Below are positions 1 through 20,629 of a DNA stretch of 64,000 bases, in pieces. The notes beneath the pieces were generated by a model. It was not told the origin of the DNA and did no database searches. It was given only the letters and a program-made list of their open reading frames with translations. This stretch comes from Candidatus Uhrbacteria bacterium (lineage in GTDB: Bacteria > Patescibacteriota > Patescibacteriia > JACPHY01). The stretch spans positions 111,505-175,504 of the forward strand of contig JACPHY010000001.1 of NCBI GenBank assembly GCA_016188355.1, read 5' to 3'. Positions within the stretch are counted from its first letter, which is position 1. Each line of letters begins with the position of its first letter. The position numbers were made by a program, and so were the translations under genes.

Positions 1-1293
<1,293 letters not shown>

Positions 1294-10345: not shown

Positions 10346-11478
10346 TCCGCACCGTAGCTCGTGCGACGCAGTGGTGGTACGAGCGGGCAGTGAAGCCAGT
10401 GCTCTTTCGGTGGGACCCCGAAACCGTGCATGATCATGCACTGCAGTTTGGCGCGTGGATTGGTGCGCATCCTCGGTTACGGGAGATGGTCGCCCACGGA
10501 TATGCATACCACCATCCTGCGCTGACGCAGGAGTTGGCGGGCATCACCTTTCCGGCACCGATTGGTCTCGCGGCAGGATTCGATAAGAATGCGCGACTCC
10601 TGGAGATCCTTCCGGCAGTGGGATTTGGTTTTGCGGAGATTGGTTCGGTGACGGCGGTGCCGTGTGCGGGGAATCCGAAACCGCGGCTCTGGCGTTTGCC
10701 GGAGAGTGGCGCGTTGCAGGTATATTACGGGCTCGCGAATGATGGCGCCGCGATCATCGCGGAGCGATTACGACGGCGAGCGCTGTGCATCCCCATTGGC
10801 GTGAGCGTTGCGAAGACGAATGCGCCGAGTACGGCGGCCCGTGCCGCGGGAATCGCGGATATGGTCGCGGGTATGCGCGCCGTCCAGGGTGTCGGATCGT
10901 ATTGCACGCTCAATGTGAGCTGCCCGAACGCGTTTGGCGGTACGCCATTCTCCGACGACTCCGATGCGCTCGACGAGTTGCTCCAGGAAACAGATGCACT
11001 GCGGAGTGCGGTGCCCGTGTTCCTGAAGTTGCCGTGTGATAGTACTGCGGAGGAGTTTGACGCGCTGTTGGCGGTTGCGGATCGGCATGCAGTTGCCGGA
11101 GTCATTATCAGCAATCTGACGAAGGATCCACAGTATCCAGGAATTGCCGTTGCGGATCGGGCGCGTTTGCAGCGCGGGGGGATCAGCGGGAAACCAGTGG
11201 CGCAGCGCGCGAATGCGCACATTGCACGGACGTATGCGCGATATCGCGATCGTTTCGTGATCGTGGGATGTGGCGGAGTGTTCACGGTGGATGATGCGTA
11301 CGAGAAAATACGGTGCGGTGCATCACTGGTGCAGCTCATCACGGGTATGATCTATCAGGGGCCTTCGCTCATCGGGCAACTGCATCGGGGACTCGTTGAG
11401 CGATTGCATCGTGAGGGATTTGCTTCCATACGCGATGCGGTAGGCAGTGGTGTTGCCGGAATTCATTCTTCATCATGA
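10342..11478 (+). CDS. pyrD: Dihydroorotate dehydrogenase (quinone), class 2
   Basis: GLAAGFDKN, IGSVT, NVSCPN and GGISG motifs. The start ATG overlaps the gpsA stop (ATGA). Confidence 0.9.
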   Translation: MIRTVARATQWWYERAVKPVLFRWDPETVHDHALQFGAWIGAHPRLREMVAHGYAYHHPALTQELAGITFPAPIGLAAGFDKNARLLEILPAVGFGFAEIGSVTAVPCAGNPKPRLWRLPESGALQVYYGLANDGAAIIAERLRRRALCIPIGVSVAKTNAPSTAARAAGIADMVAGMRAVQGVGSYCTLNVSCPNAFGGTPFSDDSDALDELLQETDALRSAVPVFLKLPCDSTAEEFDALLAVADRHAVAGVIISNLTKDPQYPGIAVADRARLQRGGISGKPVAQRANAHIARTYARYRDRFVIVGCGGVFTVDDAYEKIRCGASLVQLITGMIYQGPSLIGQLHRGLVERLHREGFASIRDAVGSGVAGIHSSS

Positions 11479-11488
11479 GGTATTGTGT

Positions 11489-11965
11489 ATGCCGCGAAGC
11501 ACACGATGGTTGGTGGTACTCCTTCGGGTGGCAATGGGGTGGATGTTGCTCTATGCGGGGATAACCAAAGTACTGGATCCGGCATGGACCGCAGCAGGAT
11601 ACTTGCGTAATGCGCACACTTTTTCGGCGTTCTATCAATGGTTTGCGCAACCGGGCAACATCGAATGGGTGAATGCGCTGAATGCATGGGGATTGACGCT
11701 CATCGGCATCGCGCTCTTCGTGGGGTTGGGCGTTCGTGTTGCTGCGCCTCTTGGCGCGGCGCTCATGTTGCTCTATTATTTCCCTGTATTGCAATTTCCC
11801 CATCCGAACGCGCACAGCTACCTCGTGGATGAGCACATCGTGTACGCATTGGCGCTCCTCGTGCTCGCGGCCATGGGTGCAGGACGGATGATGGGACTGG
11901 ATGCGTGGTGCGCACGACTGCCCCTGTGTCGCCGCTATCCGCGACTTCGATCAATCTTCGGATAA
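11489..11965 (+). CDS. DoxX-family membrane protein
   Basis: Four-TM small protein (WLVVLLRVAMGWMLLYAGITKVLDP...). An internal Met was chosen after the pyrD stop. Confidence 0.6.
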   Translation: MPRSTRWLVVLLRVAMGWMLLYAGITKVLDPAWTAAGYLRNAHTFSAFYQWFAQPGNIEWVNALNAWGLTLIGIALFVGLGVRVAAPLGAALMLLYYFPVLQFPHPNAHSYLVDEHIVYALALLVLAAMGAGRMMGLDAWCARLPLCRRYPRLRSIFG

Positions 11966-11976
11966 CATCTTGGCGT

Positions 11977-12357
11977 ATGCGAACATGGACCGGCGTGGGA
12001 ATCGTGGCGGGTATCATGTTATTGGGAGGTGCTGTGGTGTATTACCAGTTTCGAGCGCCCGCCCCCTTGGATGCATTTGCGTCCTGCCTCAAAGAAAAGG
12101 GCGCGGTGATGTACGGGACATCGTGGTGTCCGCATTGTACGCGTCAGAAGCAAATGTTCGGACGTTCGTTCCGGCGCGCGGCGTACGTGGAGTGCTCGAT
12201 GCCGGGGAATCCGAATGCGCAGGCTCCGGTGTGTCAGGAGCAGAAGATCACGGGATATCCCACATGGATTTTTGCGGATGCGTCGCGCGTCTCCGGCGTA
12301 CAGGAGCTTACCGCACTCGCGGAGAAGACGGGCTGTGCGCTGCCGGTACGTAAATGA
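11977..12357 (+). CDS. Membrane-anchored thioredoxin-fold protein (DsbA/thioredoxin-like partner of VKOR)
   Basis: WCPHC active site, one N-terminal TM helix, immediately upstream of a VKOR homolog. Confidence 0.65.
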   Translation: MRTWTGVGIVAGIMLLGGAVVYYQFRAPAPLDAFASCLKEKGAVMYGTSWCPHCTRQKQMFGRSFRRAAYVECSMPGNPNAQAPVCQEQKITGYPTWIFADASRVSGVQELTALAEKTGCALPVRK

Positions 12358-12446
12358 GCAACCCTGTTTTTCTGTATGCGCACCGTCCGTGTGGGGCGGC
12401 GCGCGTGCGGGAGAGGGATCGAGGGACAGGGTGATGGTGTGTTCCT

Positions 12447-12893
12447 ATGCGTCGTTTATTGTTCGCGGTCGCGGTATTCGCATTGGCGGGCACGTTGGTT
12501 TCCGGGTATGCGCTGCGACAGCATTATGCACCAGCGGGGAGTTCGTTTTGCAATGTCACCACCACGTTCTCCTGTGATCTCGTGAATCAGAGTACGTACT
12601 CGGAAATCATGGGAATTCCGGTCGCCGCGATTGGTGTGGTGGGATATGTTGCAATGTTGGTGCTCGCGATGATCGCGCGGGGGAATGCGCGACGCGCGGC
12701 GTGGTGCATCCCCTGGTTGCGTGCGGGTGCGATCGGGGGGATCGTGTTTTCGTTGATTCTCACCGGTATTGAGTTGTTCATCATCGGCGCAATTTGTGTG
12801 CTATGCGTTGCGTCGCAAGTATTGATGTTCGCGATTGGGGGATGCGTGGCCATGCTTCCGCGGTCTTCTCGGTCTCCTGGCCCTGAATCGTAA
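12447..12893 (+). CDS. Vitamin K epoxide reductase (VKOR) family protein
   Basis: Loop Cys pair (FCNVTTTFSCDLV) plus the TM CxxC active site (CVLC), 4-5 TM helices. Confidence 0.75.
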   Translation: MRRLLFAVAVFALAGTLVSGYALRQHYAPAGSSFCNVTTTFSCDLVNQSTYSEIMGIPVAAIGVVGYVAMLVLAMIARGNARRAAWCIPWLRAGAIGGIVFSLILTGIELFIIGAICVLCVASQVLMFAIGGCVAMLPRSSRSPGPES

Positions 12894-13267
12894 TTGCTGC
12901 CCTCTGTTCCTCGTGTGCGGGTTCGGCGCGCGTCAGGAGGATCGGACAGCGTGGATACGTGTCGATAGACAATCAAATATACGCGGCATACGGGAGCCAA
13001 TGCGTAGGCGATTGTTCATGGAGCAGCATGGAGCGAAAGCTGAACAGGATTGACGTCGCTCGAGACGGTTGCGTACGCTGCTCCTAACGCAGAACGAATC
13101 CCTCCGCGACAAACGAACCACGCGCACGGCGCGTGGTTCGCGTATGGGGGATCGTGCCTGCCGCCGTTCCCATGGAGGGCCGGTGCACATCACATTTCAT
13201 GCCCAGCGTATCGACATCGTCCCTCGGAGTGCAACATCCCAAAGGAGTGCTGCTGCCGTTCCGCATC

Positions 13268-14599
13268 ATGCGTCGTGCGCTGCGTGGCGGATTTCGGTGG
13301 TTACCGTGGAGCGCGTTCGTTGGTATCGCGGTGATTGGCGGCATGCTTGCGGTGCGTGCCCGCCTACAGGCGGCGCGCCCTCGCGCGCAGATGCGCGTCC
13401 TCGCTCCGCCTGCGGTACCGATCGTTTCGTCGGCCGCTCTCGAGCAGCCGGTATCAGTTGCCACTGTTGCTGCTGCGCTGCGTCGTGGAGCGTTGGCCGG
13501 GACATTGCCGATCGCGGACGTGACGCTCGATGCGTCGGCATCAGATTGGGGGGCAGTGGTCTTGCTTCCGCAGTTGCATCGATATCCGGGGAGCGTCTCG
13601 GCCGATGCGGTGAATGATCGGGCAGTGCGTGCGCAGCGGCAGACATATGACATTCTCCGTGGTCTCCTGCGACAGTGGCCGATTGAGTTGATGATGGTCG
13701 AAGGGGAATTGGCGGGACCGGTATCGAGAGAAAAACGGGATCGTACGGCACAGCGCATCGCCGCGCGTGCGGAGATGGTGCGTGTGCAAGACGCGTTGCG
13801 TATCGTCATCACGCAGACGGAGGACGAGGAAGCGCGATCGCGATTGGAACAATTTGCGCGTACGATTCCTGCGGCACTGGTGCGCGCGGATCGTGCTATT
13901 GCGTTGGATGGTGCGCCCTATCAATTGTGGGCGGAGGGGCAGTCGCTCACGATGGTTGGTGCGGAACGCGCGGCCACGCGCGCAACGAGTGCAGATCTCG
14001 TGCGGACGCAAGTCTACCTCCAGGACCGTCTGGCGGCGTTGACGGGATCCGATCGTATCGTTCCGACTACTCCAATGACGACCCTCCTTGCGGATACATC
14101 CGCACGGACGAATCTCCTGCGCGCGTACCTCCAGGCGCGTACGCAGCGTGCGCCAGGGTCAGGAAAAGCAGGGTCGATATCGGCTTCGAGTATGCGCGAT
14201 CCGGCGCTCGCTCCGTATGCGCAACAGCTGCAGCGTGCATTGGTGATGCTTGAGGATGCGGAATCCGCGTCTTCGGATGGTCAGGTCCGCGCGCCGTCGC
14301 GTGCAGCGAATCCGTATCTGCGCATTCAGGATCCCCGGACGATTCGTCGGATGCTTGAAGAAAACGAATCCGCAATAACGCAGACGGTGCTCGAGCAGCG
14401 GAATGGCGAAACGGCGGAATATATGGCACAAGCGCTTCGCGTACAGGGCGGTGGCGTGGGCATGTTGCAGTATGGTGCTGCACATGCGCCCGGGTTGGCG
14501 CGCGCGTTGCGGGCGCAGGGATTAACGGTGCTGACGGTGACGCCGGACGAGGTGGCGCAACGTATGCAGGAGCCCGATGCATCCACACGCCGTCCATGA
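13268..14599 (+). CDS. Hypothetical membrane-anchored protein
   Basis: Long ORF with an N-terminal TM helix (LPWSAFVGIAVIGGMLAV). No recognisable domain. Confidence 0.45.
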   Translation: MRRALRGGFRWLPWSAFVGIAVIGGMLAVRARLQAARPRAQMRVLAPPAVPIVSSAALEQPVSVATVAAALRRGALAGTLPIADVTLDASASDWGAVVLLPQLHRYPGSVSADAVNDRAVRAQRQTYDILRGLLRQWPIELMMVEGELAGPVSREKRDRTAQRIAARAEMVRVQDALRIVITQTEDEEARSRLEQFARTIPAALVRADRAIALDGAPYQLWAEGQSLTMVGAERAATRATSADLVRTQVYLQDRLAALTGSDRIVPTTPMTTLLADTSARTNLLRAYLQARTQRAPGSGKAGSISASSMRDPALAPYAQQLQRALVMLEDAESASSDGQVRAPSRAANPYLRIQDPRTIRRMLEENESAITQTVLEQRNGETAEYMAQALRVQGGGVGMLQYGAAHAPGLARALRAQGLTVLTVTPDEVAQRMQEPDASTRRP

Positions 14600-14697
14600 G
14601 GGTTGGTGCGTGATGGTGATCGCATCCGGCATCGACCCCTCCCGATCGGGAAGGGTCGATGCGAAATGGGATGAATCGCGCGGCGTCGCATGGGACA

Positions 14698-15396
14698 TTA
14701 CCTGCGATCACCGAAGAGCGCATCGAGAATGAGGAGTTCGCCCAATCGGGAACTGCCCGATGTTTGATCACCATTCAGGATGGAGTCGTCGGAATTACCG
14801 AACAGCGATTCGAGGACCAGGAGTTCCCCCAACGATGATCCTCCAAGGCCGTTGCCGAAGAGATCTGTGCCATTTCCAAAGAGTGATTCCAGGACCATGA
14901 GTTCTCCCAGTTGCGATCGGCCGTTTCGGTTGCTGCCGTTGGAGATGCGGTCCAGGGTAAGGAGATCCTGGAGATTGGAAGATCCGGTCATGGTGCCGTT
15001 CGTATCAGAGAATAGCCCCTCGAGGATGATGAGTTCTCCCAATGAAGATCCACCGAGATCCCCATTCCCGAACAGTGATTCCAGGATGAGGAGACGGCTG
15101 AGATCGCTGCCCGTTCGGGTGGGTGCAGTGGTTGTATTTTGGCGTTGATTCGGCGTGGAGTTCTCGGATGAGGGGCTGGTGGTGTCGATTTCCCAATTTT
15201 GATCGGAATTCGGATCGTTGGTGTTCGGATTTTCGGTTTCTTCCCAGGTTGCTGCAGTGGCGGTCGCCGTGTTACGAATCGCGCCCCACATGGTACCGAG
15301 GGCGAGGACGAGCGTGAGCGCGATGGTCACAATGCGTTTTCCGGGAGCGGTGAGTGCAATCATACGCAATACACAGTAGTGTCGGATGGTGAGCAT
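14698..15396 (-). CDS. Secreted repeat protein with 6-7 copies of an (S/N)xLGEL(I/L)(I/V)LExLFGNG repeat
   Basis: Signal-peptide-like N-terminus, with repeats SSLGELIILEGLF, SQLGELMVLESLFGNG, SSLGELLVLESLFGN, SRLGELLILDALFG and others. The likely true start is the internal Met at 15363. Confidence 0.6.
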   Translation of the reverse strand: MLTIRHYCVLRMIALTAPGKRIVTIALTLVLALGTMWGAIRNTATATAATWEETENPNTNDPNSDQNWEIDTTSPSSENSTPNQRQNTTTAPTRTGSDLSRLLILESLFGNGDLGGSSLGELIILEGLFSDTNGTMTGSSNLQDLLTLDRISNGSNRNGRSQLGELMVLESLFGNGTDLFGNGLGGSSLGELLVLESLFGNSDDSILNGDQTSGSSRLGELLILDALFGDRR

Positions 15397-15561
15397 TCGT
15401 CAGTGGGTGGACGAGTTCGACCTTTAGGTGCGTGGCAGCGTGTGCGATCACAGATCGCGAGTGTGCACGCATGGAGCTTATACGCGGGATGCAGAGACGG
15501 TGTTTCATTACGACACACCTACCCCGCAATTTGGGGTAGGTGTGTTCGATGCAGGCACTGC

Positions 15562-15918
15562 TTATGGCGTCGCTACGGATATGACACGCAGATGTGTGTC
15601 ACCGCGATGGGTGTACATCGCATGATGCCGATGGCTGTTCCAGATGCGGCATAAGACGATCCCCAGCACCGCTGCCCCCACTTCTCTCCATGCCGATGCG
15701 GGAAACGCGGATGCCGATGATTCGGTGGCGATGCGATACATGGCGCTCGTCACGCGGAGAGCCACCACAAGCGCGGCTGCGATTTGGAGTACCGTGATCG
15801 CTCGGGCACGACGACGTTCGGCATACACACGAGACATGGTTTGTGTGTGGAGCAGGGGAGGGAACTCGGGCTCGGTGATCACGGGAGGCGTGTCCGTAAG
15901 GAGCGGAGTTTCGTGCAT
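15562..15918 (-). CDS. Putative anti-sigma factor (membrane protein downstream of the ECF sigma)
   Basis: Positional (immediately 3' of the ECF sigma gene) with a single TM helix (ITVLQIAAALVVALRV). An internal start was chosen to avoid a 35-nt overlap. Confidence 0.4.
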   Translation of the reverse strand: MHETPLLTDTPPVITEPEFPPLLHTQTMSRVYAERRRARAITVLQIAAALVVALRVTSAMYRIATESSASAFPASAWREVGAAVLGIVLCRIWNSHRHHAMYTHRGDTHLRVISVATP

Positions 15919-15937
15919 ACGATGGGCAATAGAGGTG

Positions 15938-16501
15938 CTATGGGCTATCGACGTGGTGATTGCGAATGGCAATTTTTGCGCGTCGTACGAATGTTTTCAC
16001 GGTATTCGTGGGCACAGAAATGATACCCGCGATTTCGTCGTATGTATATCCCTGCCAGTAGTGGAGGAGGAGCACCTCGCGATAGATGGGTCGCAAACCA
16101 GCGAGGGCGCGCTCGATATCGAGTTGTGCAGCGAGTTGCAGCGGCGATCGGAAGGCATCGGCATGGGTGTCGGGAGGGTCCTCATTGCTGTCGGGATCAT
16201 CGAACGCTAAATACACGCGGTGGCGAGCGGATTTTCGAAACCAGTCGTAGACTACGTGCCTGGCGATCGTGAACATCCACGCGCCAAATGGACGTCCTGG
16301 TTCGTATGTGTGGATGTGCTGATAGAGTTTCAGGAATGTTTCCTGTGTGAGCTCCGCGGCATCATCGCGATTATTCACCATGCGAATAATGAATCCGTAG
16401 ATGCGATGTTCATAATGCGACACGATATGCGTAAACGCATGCATATCTCCGCGTTTTGCGGCGATGAGGATTTCTGTGGGAGGGGGAGGGAGTGGTGCCA
16501 T
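15938..16501 (-). CDS. ECF-family RNA polymerase sigma-70 factor
   Basis: Region 2 (ELTQETFLKLYQHIHTYEPGRPFGAWMFTIARHVVYDWFR) and region 4 HTH (LLLHYWQGYTYDEIAGIISVPTNTVKTFVRRA). Confidence 0.85.
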   Translation of the reverse strand: MAPLPPPPTEILIAAKRGDMHAFTHIVSHYEHRIYGFIIRMVNNRDDAAELTQETFLKLYQHIHTYEPGRPFGAWMFTIARHVVYDWFRKSARHRVYLAFDDPDSNEDPPDTHADAFRSPLQLAAQLDIERALAGLRPIYREVLLLHYWQGYTYDEIAGIISVPTNTVKTFVRRAKIAIRNHHVDSP

Positions 16502-16908
16502 AGCGGCGTCGCGTGCGAGCGCCGGCCGTAGATGCCACAGAGTGGTGCGTCACATGAATTGTCGGTGGGTTGGGGCAGTCCTGCGGTGCGTTCGTGATGC
16601 GTGGCGAGATGTTCCGCAATGCAGACTCAGAGCGTTGCGTGGCATTCTGAAACCGTGACCGGATGCCGCGCGTATGACCTTCTGAGACTCGTCGAGGATA
16701 GCACAAGGCGAGTACTCGGTAAAGGTCGACGCGTACGGCATGAGTGACGCAGGCGCCGTGCTTCCGGAGTATGTGCGCATGATTCGTCGATGCATGGATC
16801 GCGAGTGAAGCACGCATATGGCGGAGCGCATGCACGCACTGCTTTTGTGATATGGCATTCGTCACTTCCGAACGATACCCCGCAACGACGGGATGGCATT
16901 GGGTTGCC

Positions 16909-17454
16909 ATGAGTACGGGTGTACTCCTCGCGGTATTGGCAGTTACGGTATTCCGCGTGCCGCAGGCCGCAGCAGCGCAGACCGTGGACGGAGGAGTGGG
17001 AAATGGCATGCTCGGTACTTCGAATCTCGGAGAGCTGATCGTGCTGGATGGTTTATTCAATGGAGGAGGCGATGGGATTTTGGGAGGCGGCAATGGGAGG
17101 TCGCGACTGGGAGAGCTGATTGTTCTGGGCGGACTCTTTGATGGCGGTGGTCGCGCCGTTATCGTGGAATCCGGAGATACGCTGTCCGGTATTGCGCAGC
17201 GATTCTTGGGTACTGCGTCTCGGTTCCCGGAGATTGCTGCGCTCAATGGTATCGCAAATCCCAACCTCATCTTCCCGGGCCAGCGGTTGCAGCTTCCGGC
17301 GAATGGTGGGGTGGTGGGCACTTCCGGCGGACTCGGTGAGTTGCTGGTGCTCGACAGTCTGTTCGATGGCGGATCTGGGGGGAGGAACGGCACCTCAAAT
17401 CTCGGCGAGCTCATCATCCTGGATCGGCTGTTTGGCGGCGGAGGCATATTCTGA
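16909..17454 (+). CDS. Secreted LysM-domain protein carrying the same GEL(I/L)(V/I)L(D/G)xLF(D/N)GG repeat
   Basis: Signal peptide, repeats [49 protein letters not shown] and [16 protein letters not shown], plus an internal LysM ([16 protein letters not shown]...[14 protein letters not shown]). Confidence 0.65.
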
Positions 17455-17575
17455 GAGGCAGACTCCATGCGTCTCTCTTGAGGATACATGTCGCACAGAG
17501 CGTCTCGCGGTATGCATCGCGGGACGTTCTGTTGCGTGATTAAGATGGGAATTTCGATTACCATGGAAGTGATGT

Positions 17576-17809
17576 ATGATGCTCTCACCGAATTACTGGG
17601 AATACGGCGGCTGGTGGATTGGTATCGGTATGGTGCTTTGGTGGGTACTTCTGGTACTGGTCATTGTGGCATTGGTCCGTTGGATGGTTGGTGACTGGGA
17701 TCGACGACATCGGGGGAAGTCGGCGCGGGATATTCTTGAGGAGCGTTATGTGCGGGGAGAAATTTCGAAAGCGGAGTTCGAAGAAAAGCGTCACGATCTT
17801 GGAGCGTGA
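17576..17809 (+). CDS. SHOCT-domain small membrane protein
   Basis: TM helix followed by the C-terminal ARDILEERYVRGEISKAEFEEKRHDL SHOCT signature. Confidence 0.6.
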   Translation: MMLSPNYWEYGGWWIGIGMVLWWVLLVLVIVALVRWMVGDWDRRHRGKSARDILEERYVRGEISKAEFEEKRHDLGA

Positions 17810-18252
17810 TTGGGAAGGTGGCCGTGTACCGCGCACCACGACATGCTATCATGGCGCATGATATGCGCCGTAGCGTATTTCGTGGTCTTACGACAGCGAT
17901 ACTCGCCATCCTGTTCCTGGTGCTCATGTTGCATGTGGGCGGCATGGGCTTGTTGCCGTCCGCTGCGGCGTGTCACGCCATGAGCAGTACGTCGTCCTGG
18001 TGCATCGTGACGGAAATGCTCGCGCAATCGTTGGTGTCGACCATCGCGTCCCTGGTGGCTGCTTTGGTGGTGGTTGGTGGGGTCAGTGGGGCAGCGGTCG
18101 TGGGTGACGGACGTACGATGCGCATGCGCGCACCGCCGCTCGCGTCCGCATTAGTGGTGCCTACGCTTCGTGCGTTGTGGCGTGGGAGAGCGCGTTGTCG
18201 CGATGCGATGATTGGGTGGCGCTCGTTCCGCATGAACGAACGTCATGGGTAA
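17806..18252 (+). CDS. Hypothetical membrane protein (GTG start overlapping the SHOCT stop)
   Basis: ORF with 2-3 hydrophobic segments and Cys/His residues (AAACHAMSSTSSWC) upstream of the copper cluster. Weak. Confidence 0.3.
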   Translation: MIGKVAVYRAPRHAIMAHDMRRSVFRGLTTAILAILFLVLMLHVGGMGLLPSAAACHAMSSTSSWCIVTEMLAQSLVSTIASLVAALVVVGGVSGAAVVGDGRTMRMRAPPLASALVVPTLRALWRGRARCRDAMIGWRSFRMNERHG

Positions 18253-18352
18253 TGGATACGGGAGGAGGACGCTTCGTCGTTGCGGACGCATCAGGGGACC
18301 GTCCGTCTTTTATTTTATTCATGCATTGCGCTTCGGAATGGTGTTTTGACGT

Positions 18353-18559
18353 ATGCGTACGATCTACCAGGTTCAGGGCATTCACTGCGCGTCGTGTGTG
18401 GCGAAAATCGAAAAAGCGTTGCAGGGGGTGGCAGGTGTGACGAAGGTGTCGGTGAATTTCGCCACGGAGACCGCGACCGTCGATGGGGACGTATCACTGG
18501 AGGCACTTGCACCTGCGGTGGCGCGGGTGGGTGCGTACACATTGGAACCCATGGAGTGA
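18353..18559 (+). CDS. copZ: Heavy-metal-associated (HMA) domain copper chaperone
   Basis: 68 aa, with metal-binding GIHCASCV (a GMxCxxC variant) and a ferredoxin-like HMA pattern. Confidence 0.8.
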   Translation: MRTIYQVQGIHCASCVAKIEKALQGVAGVTKVSVNFATETATVDGDVSLEALAPAVARVGAYTLEPME

Positions 18560-18562
18560 CGC

Positions 18563-20629
18563 GTGCACCCCTCTATGTCGTCATCGATATCTACGACCCA
18601 TCACGATCATGGTGCGATGGTGCAGTCGCATCATGCCAATACTCGGAAAGCGGCCGAGCTGCAGAAGCTCCGGCAGAAACTCGTAGCCGGCTCCGTGCTC
18701 GCGGGCGTGGTGCTCATTGGTGCGTTCCCGCAGCCGTTGCGCGCGATGGGGCTGGACGGCATCGTGACGGTGTTGGCGCATCCATTCATGCTCTTCGCGC
18801 TCACCGTGCCGGTGCAGTTTTGGGCGGGATCACAGTTCTACCAAGGGCTGTGGCTTTTGTTCCGGTATCGCACCGCGGACATGAATACGCTCATCGCGAT
18901 AGGGACGCTCGCGGCATTCGGGTATTCGGTGGTCGCCACGTTCGCGCCACAACTCTTCACGCGTGGTGGACTGCAGCCCGATCTCTACTACGACACCGCG
19001 GCGGTCATCATTGTGCTCATTCTCCTTGGGCGCTATTTGGAGGCGCGTGCGAAGGCGGGCACGGGAGAGGCGATTCGGAAGCTTATGGGGCTTCAGGCGC
19101 GTACCGCGCGTGTGCTTCGGAACGGTGTCGCGCAGGATATCCCGATTGCGGACGTGTTGGTGGATGATCTCCTCGTCGTACGAACGGGCGAAAAAATTCC
19201 GGTGGATGGAGTCATCGTGGAAGGCTCCGGGAGCATTGATGAATCTATGGTGACAGGGGAGTCCATGCCGGTGGAAAAGGGGGTACATGCTGCGGTCGTG
19301 GGTGCGACCGTCAATCGGTCGGGACTCTTTACGATGCGCGCGACGAAGGTGGGGAGGGACACGGTGCTGCAGCAAATCATCCGCATGGTGCAGGAGGCGC
19401 AAGGATCGAAAGCACCTATTCAGCGGCTCGCCGATCGTGTTTCGAGTGTGTTCGTGCCGATTGTGTTCGCGGTCGCCATAATGACGTTTGGCGTGTGGTG
19501 GGCATTCGGTCCAGCTCCGGCACTCACCTACGCGCTCCTGAACACCGTTGCCGTGCTCATCATTGCGTGTCCGTGCGCGTTGGGATTGGCGACGCCCACT
19601 GCGGTCATGGTGGGTGTGGGGCGCGGTGCAGAGCGTGGCGTGCTCATTAAAGATGCGGAGGCACTGGAATTGCTCCAGAAGATCCAGATCATCGTACTCG
19701 ATAAGACGGGCACCCTGACGCAGGGTCGGCCGGTAGTGACCGATGTGCAGGGCGTACATGATGCGCAGCTGCCCGCGATTGCTGCGCTCGCGCAGCGCTC
19801 GACACACCCCCTCGCACAGGCGGTGGCCGCGCATGGTGCCCCGATTCCTACTGCTGCACCCGTGGTGCAGGAGTTCATGGAAATTGCCGGTAAGGGTATC
19901 CGGGGACGAGTGGATGCTCGCATGCTCCGTCTCGGGAATGCGGCGCTGTTCATGGCCGATGGGATTGCGGTGGGCGATTGGGAGGAGCGAGCGCGTGCAT
20001 TTGCCGAATACGGGAAAACGCCACTCTATGTCGGCGTGGACGATGGAGTCGTGGGGATTATTGCGGTCGCGGACACCTTGAAGCCGACCTCACGTGATGC
20101 CATTGTGGCATTACGAAAGTTGGGACTGTCCGTGATTATGGTTACCGGTGATCACGCGGTCACCGCGCAAGCGATTGCGCGCGAGCTCAGTATTGATCGG
20201 GTGCTCGCGGAAGTAAAACCCGAGGAGAAGGCGGCAAAGATAGCAGAGCTTAAAGCGACGGGCGCACGCGTGGCGATGGTGGGGGATGGCATCAATGATG
20301 CGCCGGCCCTCGCGGCCGCGGATGTCGGGATTGCCATGGGCACCGGGACCGACGTAGCGATGGAATCGGCGGGCATCACCCTCATGCGTGGTGACCTCAT
20401 GGCCATCGTGGAGGCCATTCAACTCTCCCGCGCCACGCTCCGGCATATTGTCCAAAATTTGTTCTGGGCGTTCGGGTATAATGTGATCCTCATCCCGGTG
20501 GCGGCGGGCGTACTCTTTCCGTTCACCGGTACGCTCCTCAATCCCATGCTCGCCGCTGGCGCCATGGCGTTCTCTTCGGTGTCCGTCGTGGTGAATTCGC
20601 TGCGATTGAAACGTGTTCGTCTGACTTGA
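18563..20629 (+). CDS. copA: Copper-translocating P1B-type ATPase. It has a His-rich N-terminus and no fused HMA domain.
   Basis: TGES, CPC (IACPCALG), [17 protein letters not shown] and HP motifs. 8 TM helices. Confidence 0.92.

Follow-up and report, generated by a model that had tools for sequence, protein, structure and literature searches.

What do two secreted proteins built from the same short repeat do beside the gene for an extracytoplasmic function (ECF) sigma factor, and which further gene belongs with them? This question is raised by a locus in a 64,000-nucleotide stretch of DNA (64 kb, hereafter the window) from Candidatus Uhrbacteria, a member of the Parcubacteria group of the Patescibacteria (candidate phyla radiation, CPR). 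A reading of the locus made earlier from the letters alone, which will be referred to as the original prediction, described an ECF sigma factor with a putative anti-sigma factor, flanked by two paralogous repeat proteins (A and B), and suggested an envelope-stress or cell-surface regulon. Comparison with other genomes supported the sigma/repeat pair, but the most constant partner had been missed: a gene for a TraB/PrgY-like protein lying just outside the interval originally described. The gene comparisons point to a conserved cell-envelope module which, where its source is named, is almost confined to Patescibacteria. Tentatively, we favour a model in which the sigma factor induces wall-tethered, multivalent motif proteins that are bound or cleaved by the TraB-like putative hydrolase. 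The positions originally given for the genes of A, the small open reading frame (ORF), the sigma factor and B proved correct, and the principal features of the locus are as follows.

13229..14599, plus strand: membrane-anchored TraB/PrgY/GumN-like (TIKI-superfamily-like) putative hydrolase, 456 amino acids, NCBI call P0122; alternative ATG at 13268
14698..15396, minus strand: repeat protein A, 232 amino acids, six cores, without LysM; probable start at 15363
15481..15507, minus strand: ECF-type promoter of A, TGAAAC-N17-CGTA; same element 5′ of the A orthologue in L001
15562..15918, minus strand: small membrane ORF 3′ of the sigma gene; the listed ORF reaches a TTG at 15972, and the ATG conserved in L001 is at 15918
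15938..16501, minus strand: ECF (group 4) sigma factor, 187 amino acids, recognised by Pfam and NCBIfam profiles
16648..16674, plus strand: ECF-type promoter of B, TGAAAC-N17-CGTA; same element 5′ of the B orthologue in L001
16852..17454, plus strand, divergent from the sigma gene: repeat protein B, 200 amino acids, consisting of signal peptide, two cores, LysM and two cores
17161..17298, plus strand: LysM peptidoglycan-binding domain of B, residues 104–149, PF01476

Repeat Proteins A and B

A six-frame regular-expression scan of the 64 kb detected the repeat core six times in A, four times in B and nowhere else in the window. The core comprises 11 residues, L-G-(D/E)-L-(I/F)-(V/I)-L-D-x-L-F, and is embedded in linkers of Gly, Asn, Ser and Asp. 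The description of A and B as paralogous secreted proteins with a common repeat holds. The repeat, originally given as 13–16 residues long, is real, but the conserved unit is the 11-residue core, the linkers being variable and the period 20–29 residues. Similarly, A had been described as consisting almost entirely of repeats; it contains six cores, but its first ~95 residues form a signal or anchor sequence and a Thr/Asn/Ser/Pro/Glu-rich stretch outside the repeats. Signal peptides were assigned by eye only. A probably starts at Met12 (15363), as does its orthologue P0001 (45% identity) within a syntenic Uhrbacteria locus. The orthologue of B, P0004, aligns along its entire length with 66% identity; as this alignment takes in the N-terminal extension, it supports the start at 16852. 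The isoelectric points (pI) of the mature proteins are ~4.05 for A and ~4.4 for B.

The LysM domain of B is genuine, matching PF01476 with an E value of 2.7e-12 and 46.9 bits compared to a gathering score of 20.9. AlphaFold, run on the repeat protein with an alignment of 22 sequences, modelled this region confidently (block means of 91–96 for residues 81–130 of B), whereas the repeats scored 40–55 in the predicted local distance difference test (pLDDT) and were devoid of secondary structure according to DSSP. Consequently, a beta-solenoid, one of the two structures originally envisaged for the repeat, is not supported.

The repeats are a feature of the protein and do not derive from low-complexity DNA. 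Tandem Repeats Finder found no DNA tandem repeat, and the ten 33-nucleotide cores are 63% identical, with 200 synonymous compared to 174 nonsynonymous codon differences; moreover, the LysM domain is intact and homologues occur in other genomes. Chance reading frames, for which nothing beyond the compositional bias of the linkers speaks, are also contradicted by the number of homologous clusters described below, by signal-peptide-like N-termini (by eye) and by conserved promoters. We regard this explanation as refuted.

The Repeat Family beyond the Window

When the repeat region of A served as query in an exhaustive phmmer search of 1.84 billion representatives, 71 clusters were retrieved at E ≤ 1e-3, without exception short proteins of 96–391 amino acids. 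The named sources are all Patescibacteria with the exception of one contig labelled Gammaproteobacteria, and matches with a source name are annotated only as “hypothetical” or “LysM”. In accordance with the original prediction, the repeat matched no known family: neither Pfam nor NCBIfam matched it in A and B, and no Pfam repeat model matched 10 further members. This includes the profiles for RTX, LRR, dockerin/EF-hand, curlin, choline-binding and Sel1/TPR repeats (Pfam for A, B and the 10 members, NCBIfam for A and B); PDB sequences gave no match to the repeat at E ≤ 10. We discarded an RTX-like, a dockerin/EF-hand-like and an LRR-like interpretation of the core because of the missing profile matches, the variable linkers and the wrong residue pattern, and a transmembrane beta-strand because the core lacks alternating polarity. 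Searches of the literature on CPR bacteria, LysM, TraB and ECF sigma factors turned up neither the repeat nor the module. What is new is the repeat family and the three-part association, whereas the ECF sigma factor, LysM and the TraB-like fold are of known kinds.

Family statistics were obtained by reading 80 members and tabulating 340 repeat units. The consensus is [S/N/T]-[N/D/S]-L-G-[D/E]-L-[I/F]-[V/I]-L-D-x-L-F-[G/N/S], in which the conservation of the core residues L1, L4, L7 and F11 exceeds 90% in each case. The spacing of the cores is variable, with a mode of 23–28 residues. Gly accounts for 27% of the linker residues, Asn for 15%, Ser for 13% and Asp for 11%. Of the 80 proteins, 65 (81%) contain an even number of cores, in most cases four (n = 37) or six (n = 26). 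LysM is present in 34 of the 80 and thus missing from ~57% of the family, and the C-terminus commonly lies 1–3 residues past the last core. The median pI is 4.1 and the median net charge −11; Cys, His and Lys are nearly absent. The residue preceding the core is N, D, S or T in 82% of the units, core position 3 is D, E, N or Q in 87%, and the following residue is G, N or S in 74%, a distribution which resembles a helix capping box and a Gly C-cap and suggests an 11-residue helix between them.

In some members (P0136, P0158, P0160 and P0173; P0007, P0009, P0011, P0014 and P0139) two core sub-types alternate, for example NLAGLIAVDRI(T/V)GG with LGDLIVLNGLFG, or SLGQLIVLDKLFD with a second sub-type. 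This alternation agrees with the even copy number and suggests that the cores function in pairs.

The TraB-Like Neighbour

A TraB-like gene adjoins a repeat gene tail-to-tail, in convergent orientation, in 14 out of 14 non-identical loci (the window, L001, L002, L004, L005, L006, L008, L009, L010, L013, L015, L017, L021 and L022), which were collected from the repeat-protein side as well as from the enzyme side in GTDB genomes and JGI metagenomes. Their named sources are Uhrbacteria, Magasanikbacteria and Peregrinibacteria, in addition to one 7.8-kb contig labelled Gammaproteobacteria. The locus in the second Uhrbacteria assembly (L001) is largely syntenic with that of the window, the identities being 45% for A, 66% for B and 78% for the sigma factor. 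The TraB-like protein of the window is 100% identical to Ca. Uhrbacteria HYV74_00555.

The neighbours are 290–490 amino acids long, start with a membrane anchor or a signal sequence and are mutually homologous with 26–53% identity. Judging by eye from the N-terminal anchors and Ser/Thr/Pro linkers, the enzyme domain presumably faces outward. Residues invariant across seven homologues fall within the motifs PQxH, ND..Q, EG(E/D)LxGxV, RN and QxGxxH, and the His of PQxH, the acidic pair of E-G-(E/D) and the His of QxGxxH are kept in all seven. For three of the seven, PF01963 (TraB_PrgY_gumN) is the top Pfam family (E values of 1.8e-4, 9.7e-4 and 0.14), the matches covering the C-terminal RN...GxxH part of the model; the NCBIfam model TIGR00261 (traB) likewise is the top family for three of the seven, with a best E value of 4.4e-6. 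Active enzymes of the TIKI superfamily carry a 2His/2Glu signature at the ends of core beta-strands (PMC6254334), to which the two conserved His and two acidic residues of the neighbour, as judged from the motifs and not from an alignment, may correspond. The superfamily is also characterised by an alpha/beta fold whose parallel five-stranded core resembles ChaN, Ere or RRSP. An AlphaFold model of medium confidence (pLDDT 60.6), built on an alignment of three sequences, shows five beta-strands, with each motif at or just past a strand end, and a long helical insertion of ~150–200 residues.

ECF-Type Promoters and the Sigma Factor

The ECF-type element TGAAAC-N16/17-CGTA has exactly two matches in the window compared to 0.09 expected, one 5′ of each repeat gene, at a distance of 85 nucleotides from A (15507–15481, minus strand) and 178 nucleotides from B (16648–16674, plus strand). 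The original prediction that A and B share an ECF-type promoter was thereby confirmed, the spacer being N17 in both. In 210 kb from 15 distinct loci, 11 exact matches were detected, all within the module. Nine of them lie on the correct strand, at most 184 nucleotides 5′ of a repeat gene (window two, L001 two, L006 one, L021 three, L022 one; binomial P ~5e-15). The element is conserved 5′ of repeat genes in five other genomes, and L002 carries the variant GGAAAC-N17-CGTA. The other two matches, both in L022, read TGAAAC-N16-CGTA and precede the sigma gene (136–161, plus strand) and the lipoprotein gene that heads the TraB-like operon (3949–3924, minus strand). The former predicts autoregulation of the sigma gene, and through the latter the enzyme is part of the same predicted regulon in at least one genome. 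The B. subtilis consensus for ECF promoters combines tgaAAC with CGTA, the latter being typical of sigma-W promoters (PMC5758882). We infer that the sigma factor of this locus uses the TGAAAC-N16/17-CGTA promoters.

The sigma factor itself is genuine. It consists only of regions 2 and 4 (PF04542, Sigma70_r2, E value 6e-19; PF08281, r4_2, E value 4e-15) and scores 94 bits on TIGR02937 compared to a cut-off of 42.9. SigW models are among its best NCBIfam matches, far below their cut-offs (PRK09641, 98.9 versus 209 bits; TIGR02948, 94.4 versus 243 bits); the protein is SigW-like in promoter type only and does not qualify as a SigW equivalog. An orthologous sigma factor gene (38–79% identity) adjoins a repeat gene in seven loci (window, L001, L002, L005, L006, L021 and L022); more divergent ECF sigma factors are encoded 0–1.1 kb away in L010, L013 and L015, and L004 retains a sigma region-4 fragment.

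The small ORF 3′ of the sigma gene had been taken for a putative anti-sigma factor, which is not supported: no anti-sigma domain of Pfam or NCBIfam was matched, and the ORF is missing from several sigma-bearing loci. No ORF separates the sigma gene from the repeat gene in L002, L005, L006 and L021. The ~40 N-terminal residues (PExxLHxxxMxxxxxxRR) recur in a 58-amino-acid ORF of L001, and a 100-amino-acid ORF in L022 has a related motif at its N-terminus, with membrane segments behind it (by eye). At best, the small membrane ORF is a candidate for a noncanonical anti-sigma factor.

Leaders of the Repeat Genes

The 64-kb window contains just two copies of the motif AAAGGTCGA (0.33 expected), each of them in the leader of a repeat gene and 9–60 nucleotides downstream of the −10 element. 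The motif is also present in repeat-gene leaders of L001 (twice), L002, L006, L009, L010, L013 and L022, which include distant lineages. An Rfam search of 14500–17600 gave only subthreshold chance matches, and folding of nine leaders around AAAGGTCGA revealed no common structure (z ~−1, except for one unrelated leader at −3.7). The related leaders of L004 (6880–7003, plus strand) and L015 (6684–6810, minus strand) have in common the stems GAGGGC(C/T)GC/GCGGCCC and CTACCTTCC/GGAGGGTAG, which would render the Shine-Dalgarno sequence inaccessible. As the L004 leader folds far better than its shuffles (z = −3.7), these two leaders may represent a translational control element. In the leader of a Magasanikbacteria LysM-repeat gene (L002 6790–6900, plus strand), four direct copies of TCCGGCT are spaced ~20–30 nucleotides apart.

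Proposed Function of the Module

The gene anatomy, the repeat family, the promoters and the TraB-like synteny are observed directly, and the following mechanism is proposed to connect them. A SigW-type ECF sigma factor would recognise TGAAAC-N16/17-CGTA in front of the repeat-protein genes and, when active, would load the wall with secreted, very acidic motif proteins, of which LysM would pin the B-type members to peptidoglycan. Because the repeats are not predicted to fold on their own, the cores, usually four or six on flexible linkers, most likely act as multivalent short docking motifs; the N-cap and C-cap statistics suggest that each would form one short helix upon binding. The membrane-anchored, outward-facing TraB/PrgY/TIKI-like putative hydrolase, with its His/Glu motif set intact, would be the obligate genetic partner. 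It may recognise the repeated core, by analogy with PrgY, and trim or cleave the proteins, so that the amount of hydrophobic motif displayed or released would be controlled.

Several findings weigh against this model, to which we give somewhat less than an even chance. What links the enzyme to the repeat proteins is solely the adjacency of their genes, and a single repeat gene, that of L024, lacks a TraB-like neighbour within the 0.6 kb that remain up to the contig end. No conserved cleavage site was found beside the cores, where only weak preferences exist (S/N/T and N/D/S before, G/N/S after); the LysM tether argues for retention and not for release; and the AlphaFold model of the repeats is free of helices. 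The ECF promoter is missing from both the sigma gene and the TraB-like gene of the window, and a relaxed search 5′ of the sigma and TraB-like genes of five loci found none. All TraB/TIKI matches remain under the curated thresholds (PF01963, 12–22 versus 26.8 bits), and the TraB-like protein of the window itself gave no match. Foldseek of the model (pLDDT 60.6) against the PDB and hhalign of the seven-sequence profile against E. coli YbaP, a bona fide member of the TraB family, yielded no match, and hmmsearch of the TraB-like profile against PDB sequences returned only chance matches. Since the subthreshold family matches and the motifs have to be set against the null results of Foldseek and hhalign, we label the neighbour a distant TraB/PrgY/TIKI-like protein at most and not a demonstrated member.

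Part of the same evidence would fit a self-assembling surface matrix, in which the cores serve as stickers on Gly/Asn-rich spacers and associate as helix pairs or bundles or as an amyloid- or hydrogel-like network; the wall-bound layer would be anchored by the LysM paralogues, the TraB-like protein being a maturation factor or a co-regulated neighbour. Pairing of cores agrees with their even number (65 out of 80), the alternating sub-types and the occurrence of paralogues with and without LysM in one locus, and linkers with 27% Gly, 15% Asn and 13% Ser, chains usually ending 1–3 residues past the last core and the lack of a monomer fold in AlphaFold point in the same direction. However, Curlin_rpt and other Pfam repeat models gave no match, beta-solenoid amyloids are usually modelled with confidence by AlphaFold, which is not the case here, and a strictly conserved, catalytically intact-looking hydrolase next door is left unexplained. 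We consider such a matrix possible but unlikely. Even less probable in our judgement is a classical envelope-stress regulon, in which stress would free the sigma factor from the small membrane ORF as its anti-sigma factor and the acidic, hydrophobic wall proteins would form a protective sponge, for instance for cationic membrane-active peptides or metal ions, with the TraB-like protein as a conceivable site-1 protease. The SigW-type promoters, the small membrane ORF that directly follows the sigma gene (window, L001 and L022) and the strong acidity of the products are in line with this explanation, as are a copper-type P-type ATPase and a heavy-metal-associated (HMA) domain nearby, CsoR, MerC and a cupredoxin in L001 and a P-type ATPase in L004. 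Yet the small ORF has no anti-sigma domain and its position is empty in at least four sigma-containing loci, metal-handling genes occur beside only three of the 14 loci, and His and Cys, the usual ligands of copper and other soft metals, are nearly absent from the products; moreover, a sponge does not require a highly conserved 11-residue core.

Dockerin helices combine an acidic residue with hydrophobic residues at +1, +3, +4, +7 and +8. The cores show this pattern too, and the even copy number as well as the Asp/Asn/Gly-rich stretch before each core, with N/D/S at the preceding residue, would suit paired Ca2+-dependent helix-loop modules of the dockerin/EF-hand type docking onto a cohesin-like partner or onto each other. 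No dockerin or EF-hand model of Pfam matched up to an E value of 1, however; the linkers vary too much in length to accommodate a loop fixed at 12 residues, Ser/Asn/Thr occupies the equivalent of hydrophobic loop residue 8, and AlphaFold shows no helices, so that we give this idea very little credence. A more far-reaching version of the proposed enzyme action is that the repeat proteins are wall-tethered polyprotein precursors from which the TIKI/TraB-type enzyme frees acidic, hydrophobic undecapeptides, LG(D/E)L(I/F)(V/I)LDxLF. We rate this as improbable. If true, the peptides would act as signals or as membrane-active effectors in the interaction of ultra-small Patescibacteria with their hosts or neighbours, the system would be a bacterial counterpart of multicopy pheromone precursors, and a free-living bacterial TraB/TIKI protease would be assigned its first substrate class.

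Comparison with Known Systems

Several copies of a conserved unit of 11–13 residues between spacers are also found in yeast alpha-factor-type precursors, curli CsgA and FG-nucleoporins. The Gly/Asn/Ser-rich spacers of the repeat family and its recurring hydrophobic stickers of the “LFG” type bring sticker-spacer proteins to mind. In contrast to multicopy precursors, the repeat proteins contain no dibasic or other defined processing sites, and in contrast to CsgA they show neither a Curlin_rpt match nor a predicted beta-solenoid. They further differ from both precursors and sticker-spacer proteins in being acidic and in having Leu/Ile/Val-rich cores with a conserved Asp. As in LysM-anchored wall proteins such as autolysins, SafA and aggregation-promoting factors, a single above-threshold LysM tethers the secreted protein to peptidoglycan; unlike these, B has no catalytic domain, its LysM lies in the middle of the repeat array, and more than half of the family (~57%) manages without LysM.

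The sigma branch of the module resembles the sigma-W regulon of B. subtilis. Both have a group-4 sigma factor with only regions 2 and 4, TGAAAC-N16/17-CGTA target promoters (PMC5758882), a small membrane protein encoded right after the sigma gene and envelope proteins as targets. The sigma factor of this locus differs in reaching only ~99 of 209 bits on the SigW equivalog and in having no RsiW-type anti-sigma domain beside it; the window contains no autoregulatory promoter, the targets are a new repeat family, and the host is a Patescibacterium.

For the enzyme of the module, enterococcal PrgY/TraB is the closest functional analogy we can offer. PrgY is described as an extracellular membrane peptidase thought to degrade the wall-associated hydrophobic pheromone cCF10, LVTLVFV (PMC7117660). 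Common to both systems would be a membrane-anchored extracellular domain of the TraB type with conserved His and Glu and the genetic coupling to short, very hydrophobic, wall-associated peptide sequences (PMC7117660). On the other hand, the sequence similarity is subthreshold, and the module enzyme has its anchor at the N-terminus and carries the helical insertion of ~150–200 residues. Its putative hydrophobic partners are four to six internal repeats of a secreted protein and not signal-peptide fragments, and the module is chromosomal, not plasmid-borne, with no pheromone receptor or conjugation genes nearby.

Further Features of the Locus

In addition to the genes and promoters, the following elements were located.

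14619..14672: imperfect palindrome with 27-nucleotide arms, 81% complementary, between the convergent TraB-like gene and gene A
15417..15425, minus strand: leader motif AAAGGTCGA of A, within the 5′ untranslated region
15513..15545: perfect 13-bp hairpin, separating the small ORF from the promoter of A
16721..16729, plus strand: leader motif AAAGGTCGA of B, within the 5′ untranslated region

The palindrome is likely a bidirectional terminator hairpin, and the 13-bp hairpin looks like a terminator-like insulator for the sigma operon. Neither has a T-run, which is why the consensus terminator scan passed over the palindrome; the combined scan for sigma-70 promoters and terminators was uninformative. 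At the place equivalent to the 13-bp hairpin, L001 contains an inverted repeat of other sequence (by eye). The two hairpins fit separate transcription units for the sigma operon and A, and for A and the TraB-like gene. PADLOC returned no defence-system match among the five proteins of the locus.

The module is flanked by DoxX/VKOR thiol-redox membrane proteins (11447–12893) on one side and by a SHOCT protein and a copper-type ATPase (17576–20629) on the other. The L001 neighbourhood also encodes CsoR, MerC and a cupredoxin, and the P-type ATPase gene of L004 lies directly 5′ of the LysM-repeat gene. Such neighbours, seen in three of the 14 loci, could reflect a metal or redox link or a coincidence. 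At 18353–20629 (plus strand), an HMA-domain ORF and a P-type ATPase ORF lie in one frame and are split by a single TGA (ATGGAGTGACGCGTG) at 18557–18559, whereas the orthologue in L001 is a single fused gene of 762 amino acids; the TGA could be a sequencing error, a mark of a pseudogene or a site of read-through.

Significance

A considerable part of bacterial diversity falls within the Patescibacteria (CPR), most of which have not been cultured, and to our knowledge the construction and regulation of their surfaces are poorly understood. The locus described here represents a compact and testable module, with a sigma factor that has a clear promoter, two to three target genes for an undescribed repeat and a conserved extracellular enzyme. 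Even on a conservative reading, the repeat merits a family definition, as none of its 71 clusters is annotated. If the TraB-like protein acts on the repeats, they would provide a natural substrate class for the widespread and poorly understood bacterial TraB/GumN family, and the theme of PrgY and TIKI, proteases that handle hydrophobic extracellular peptides, would extend to a new phylum-level group.

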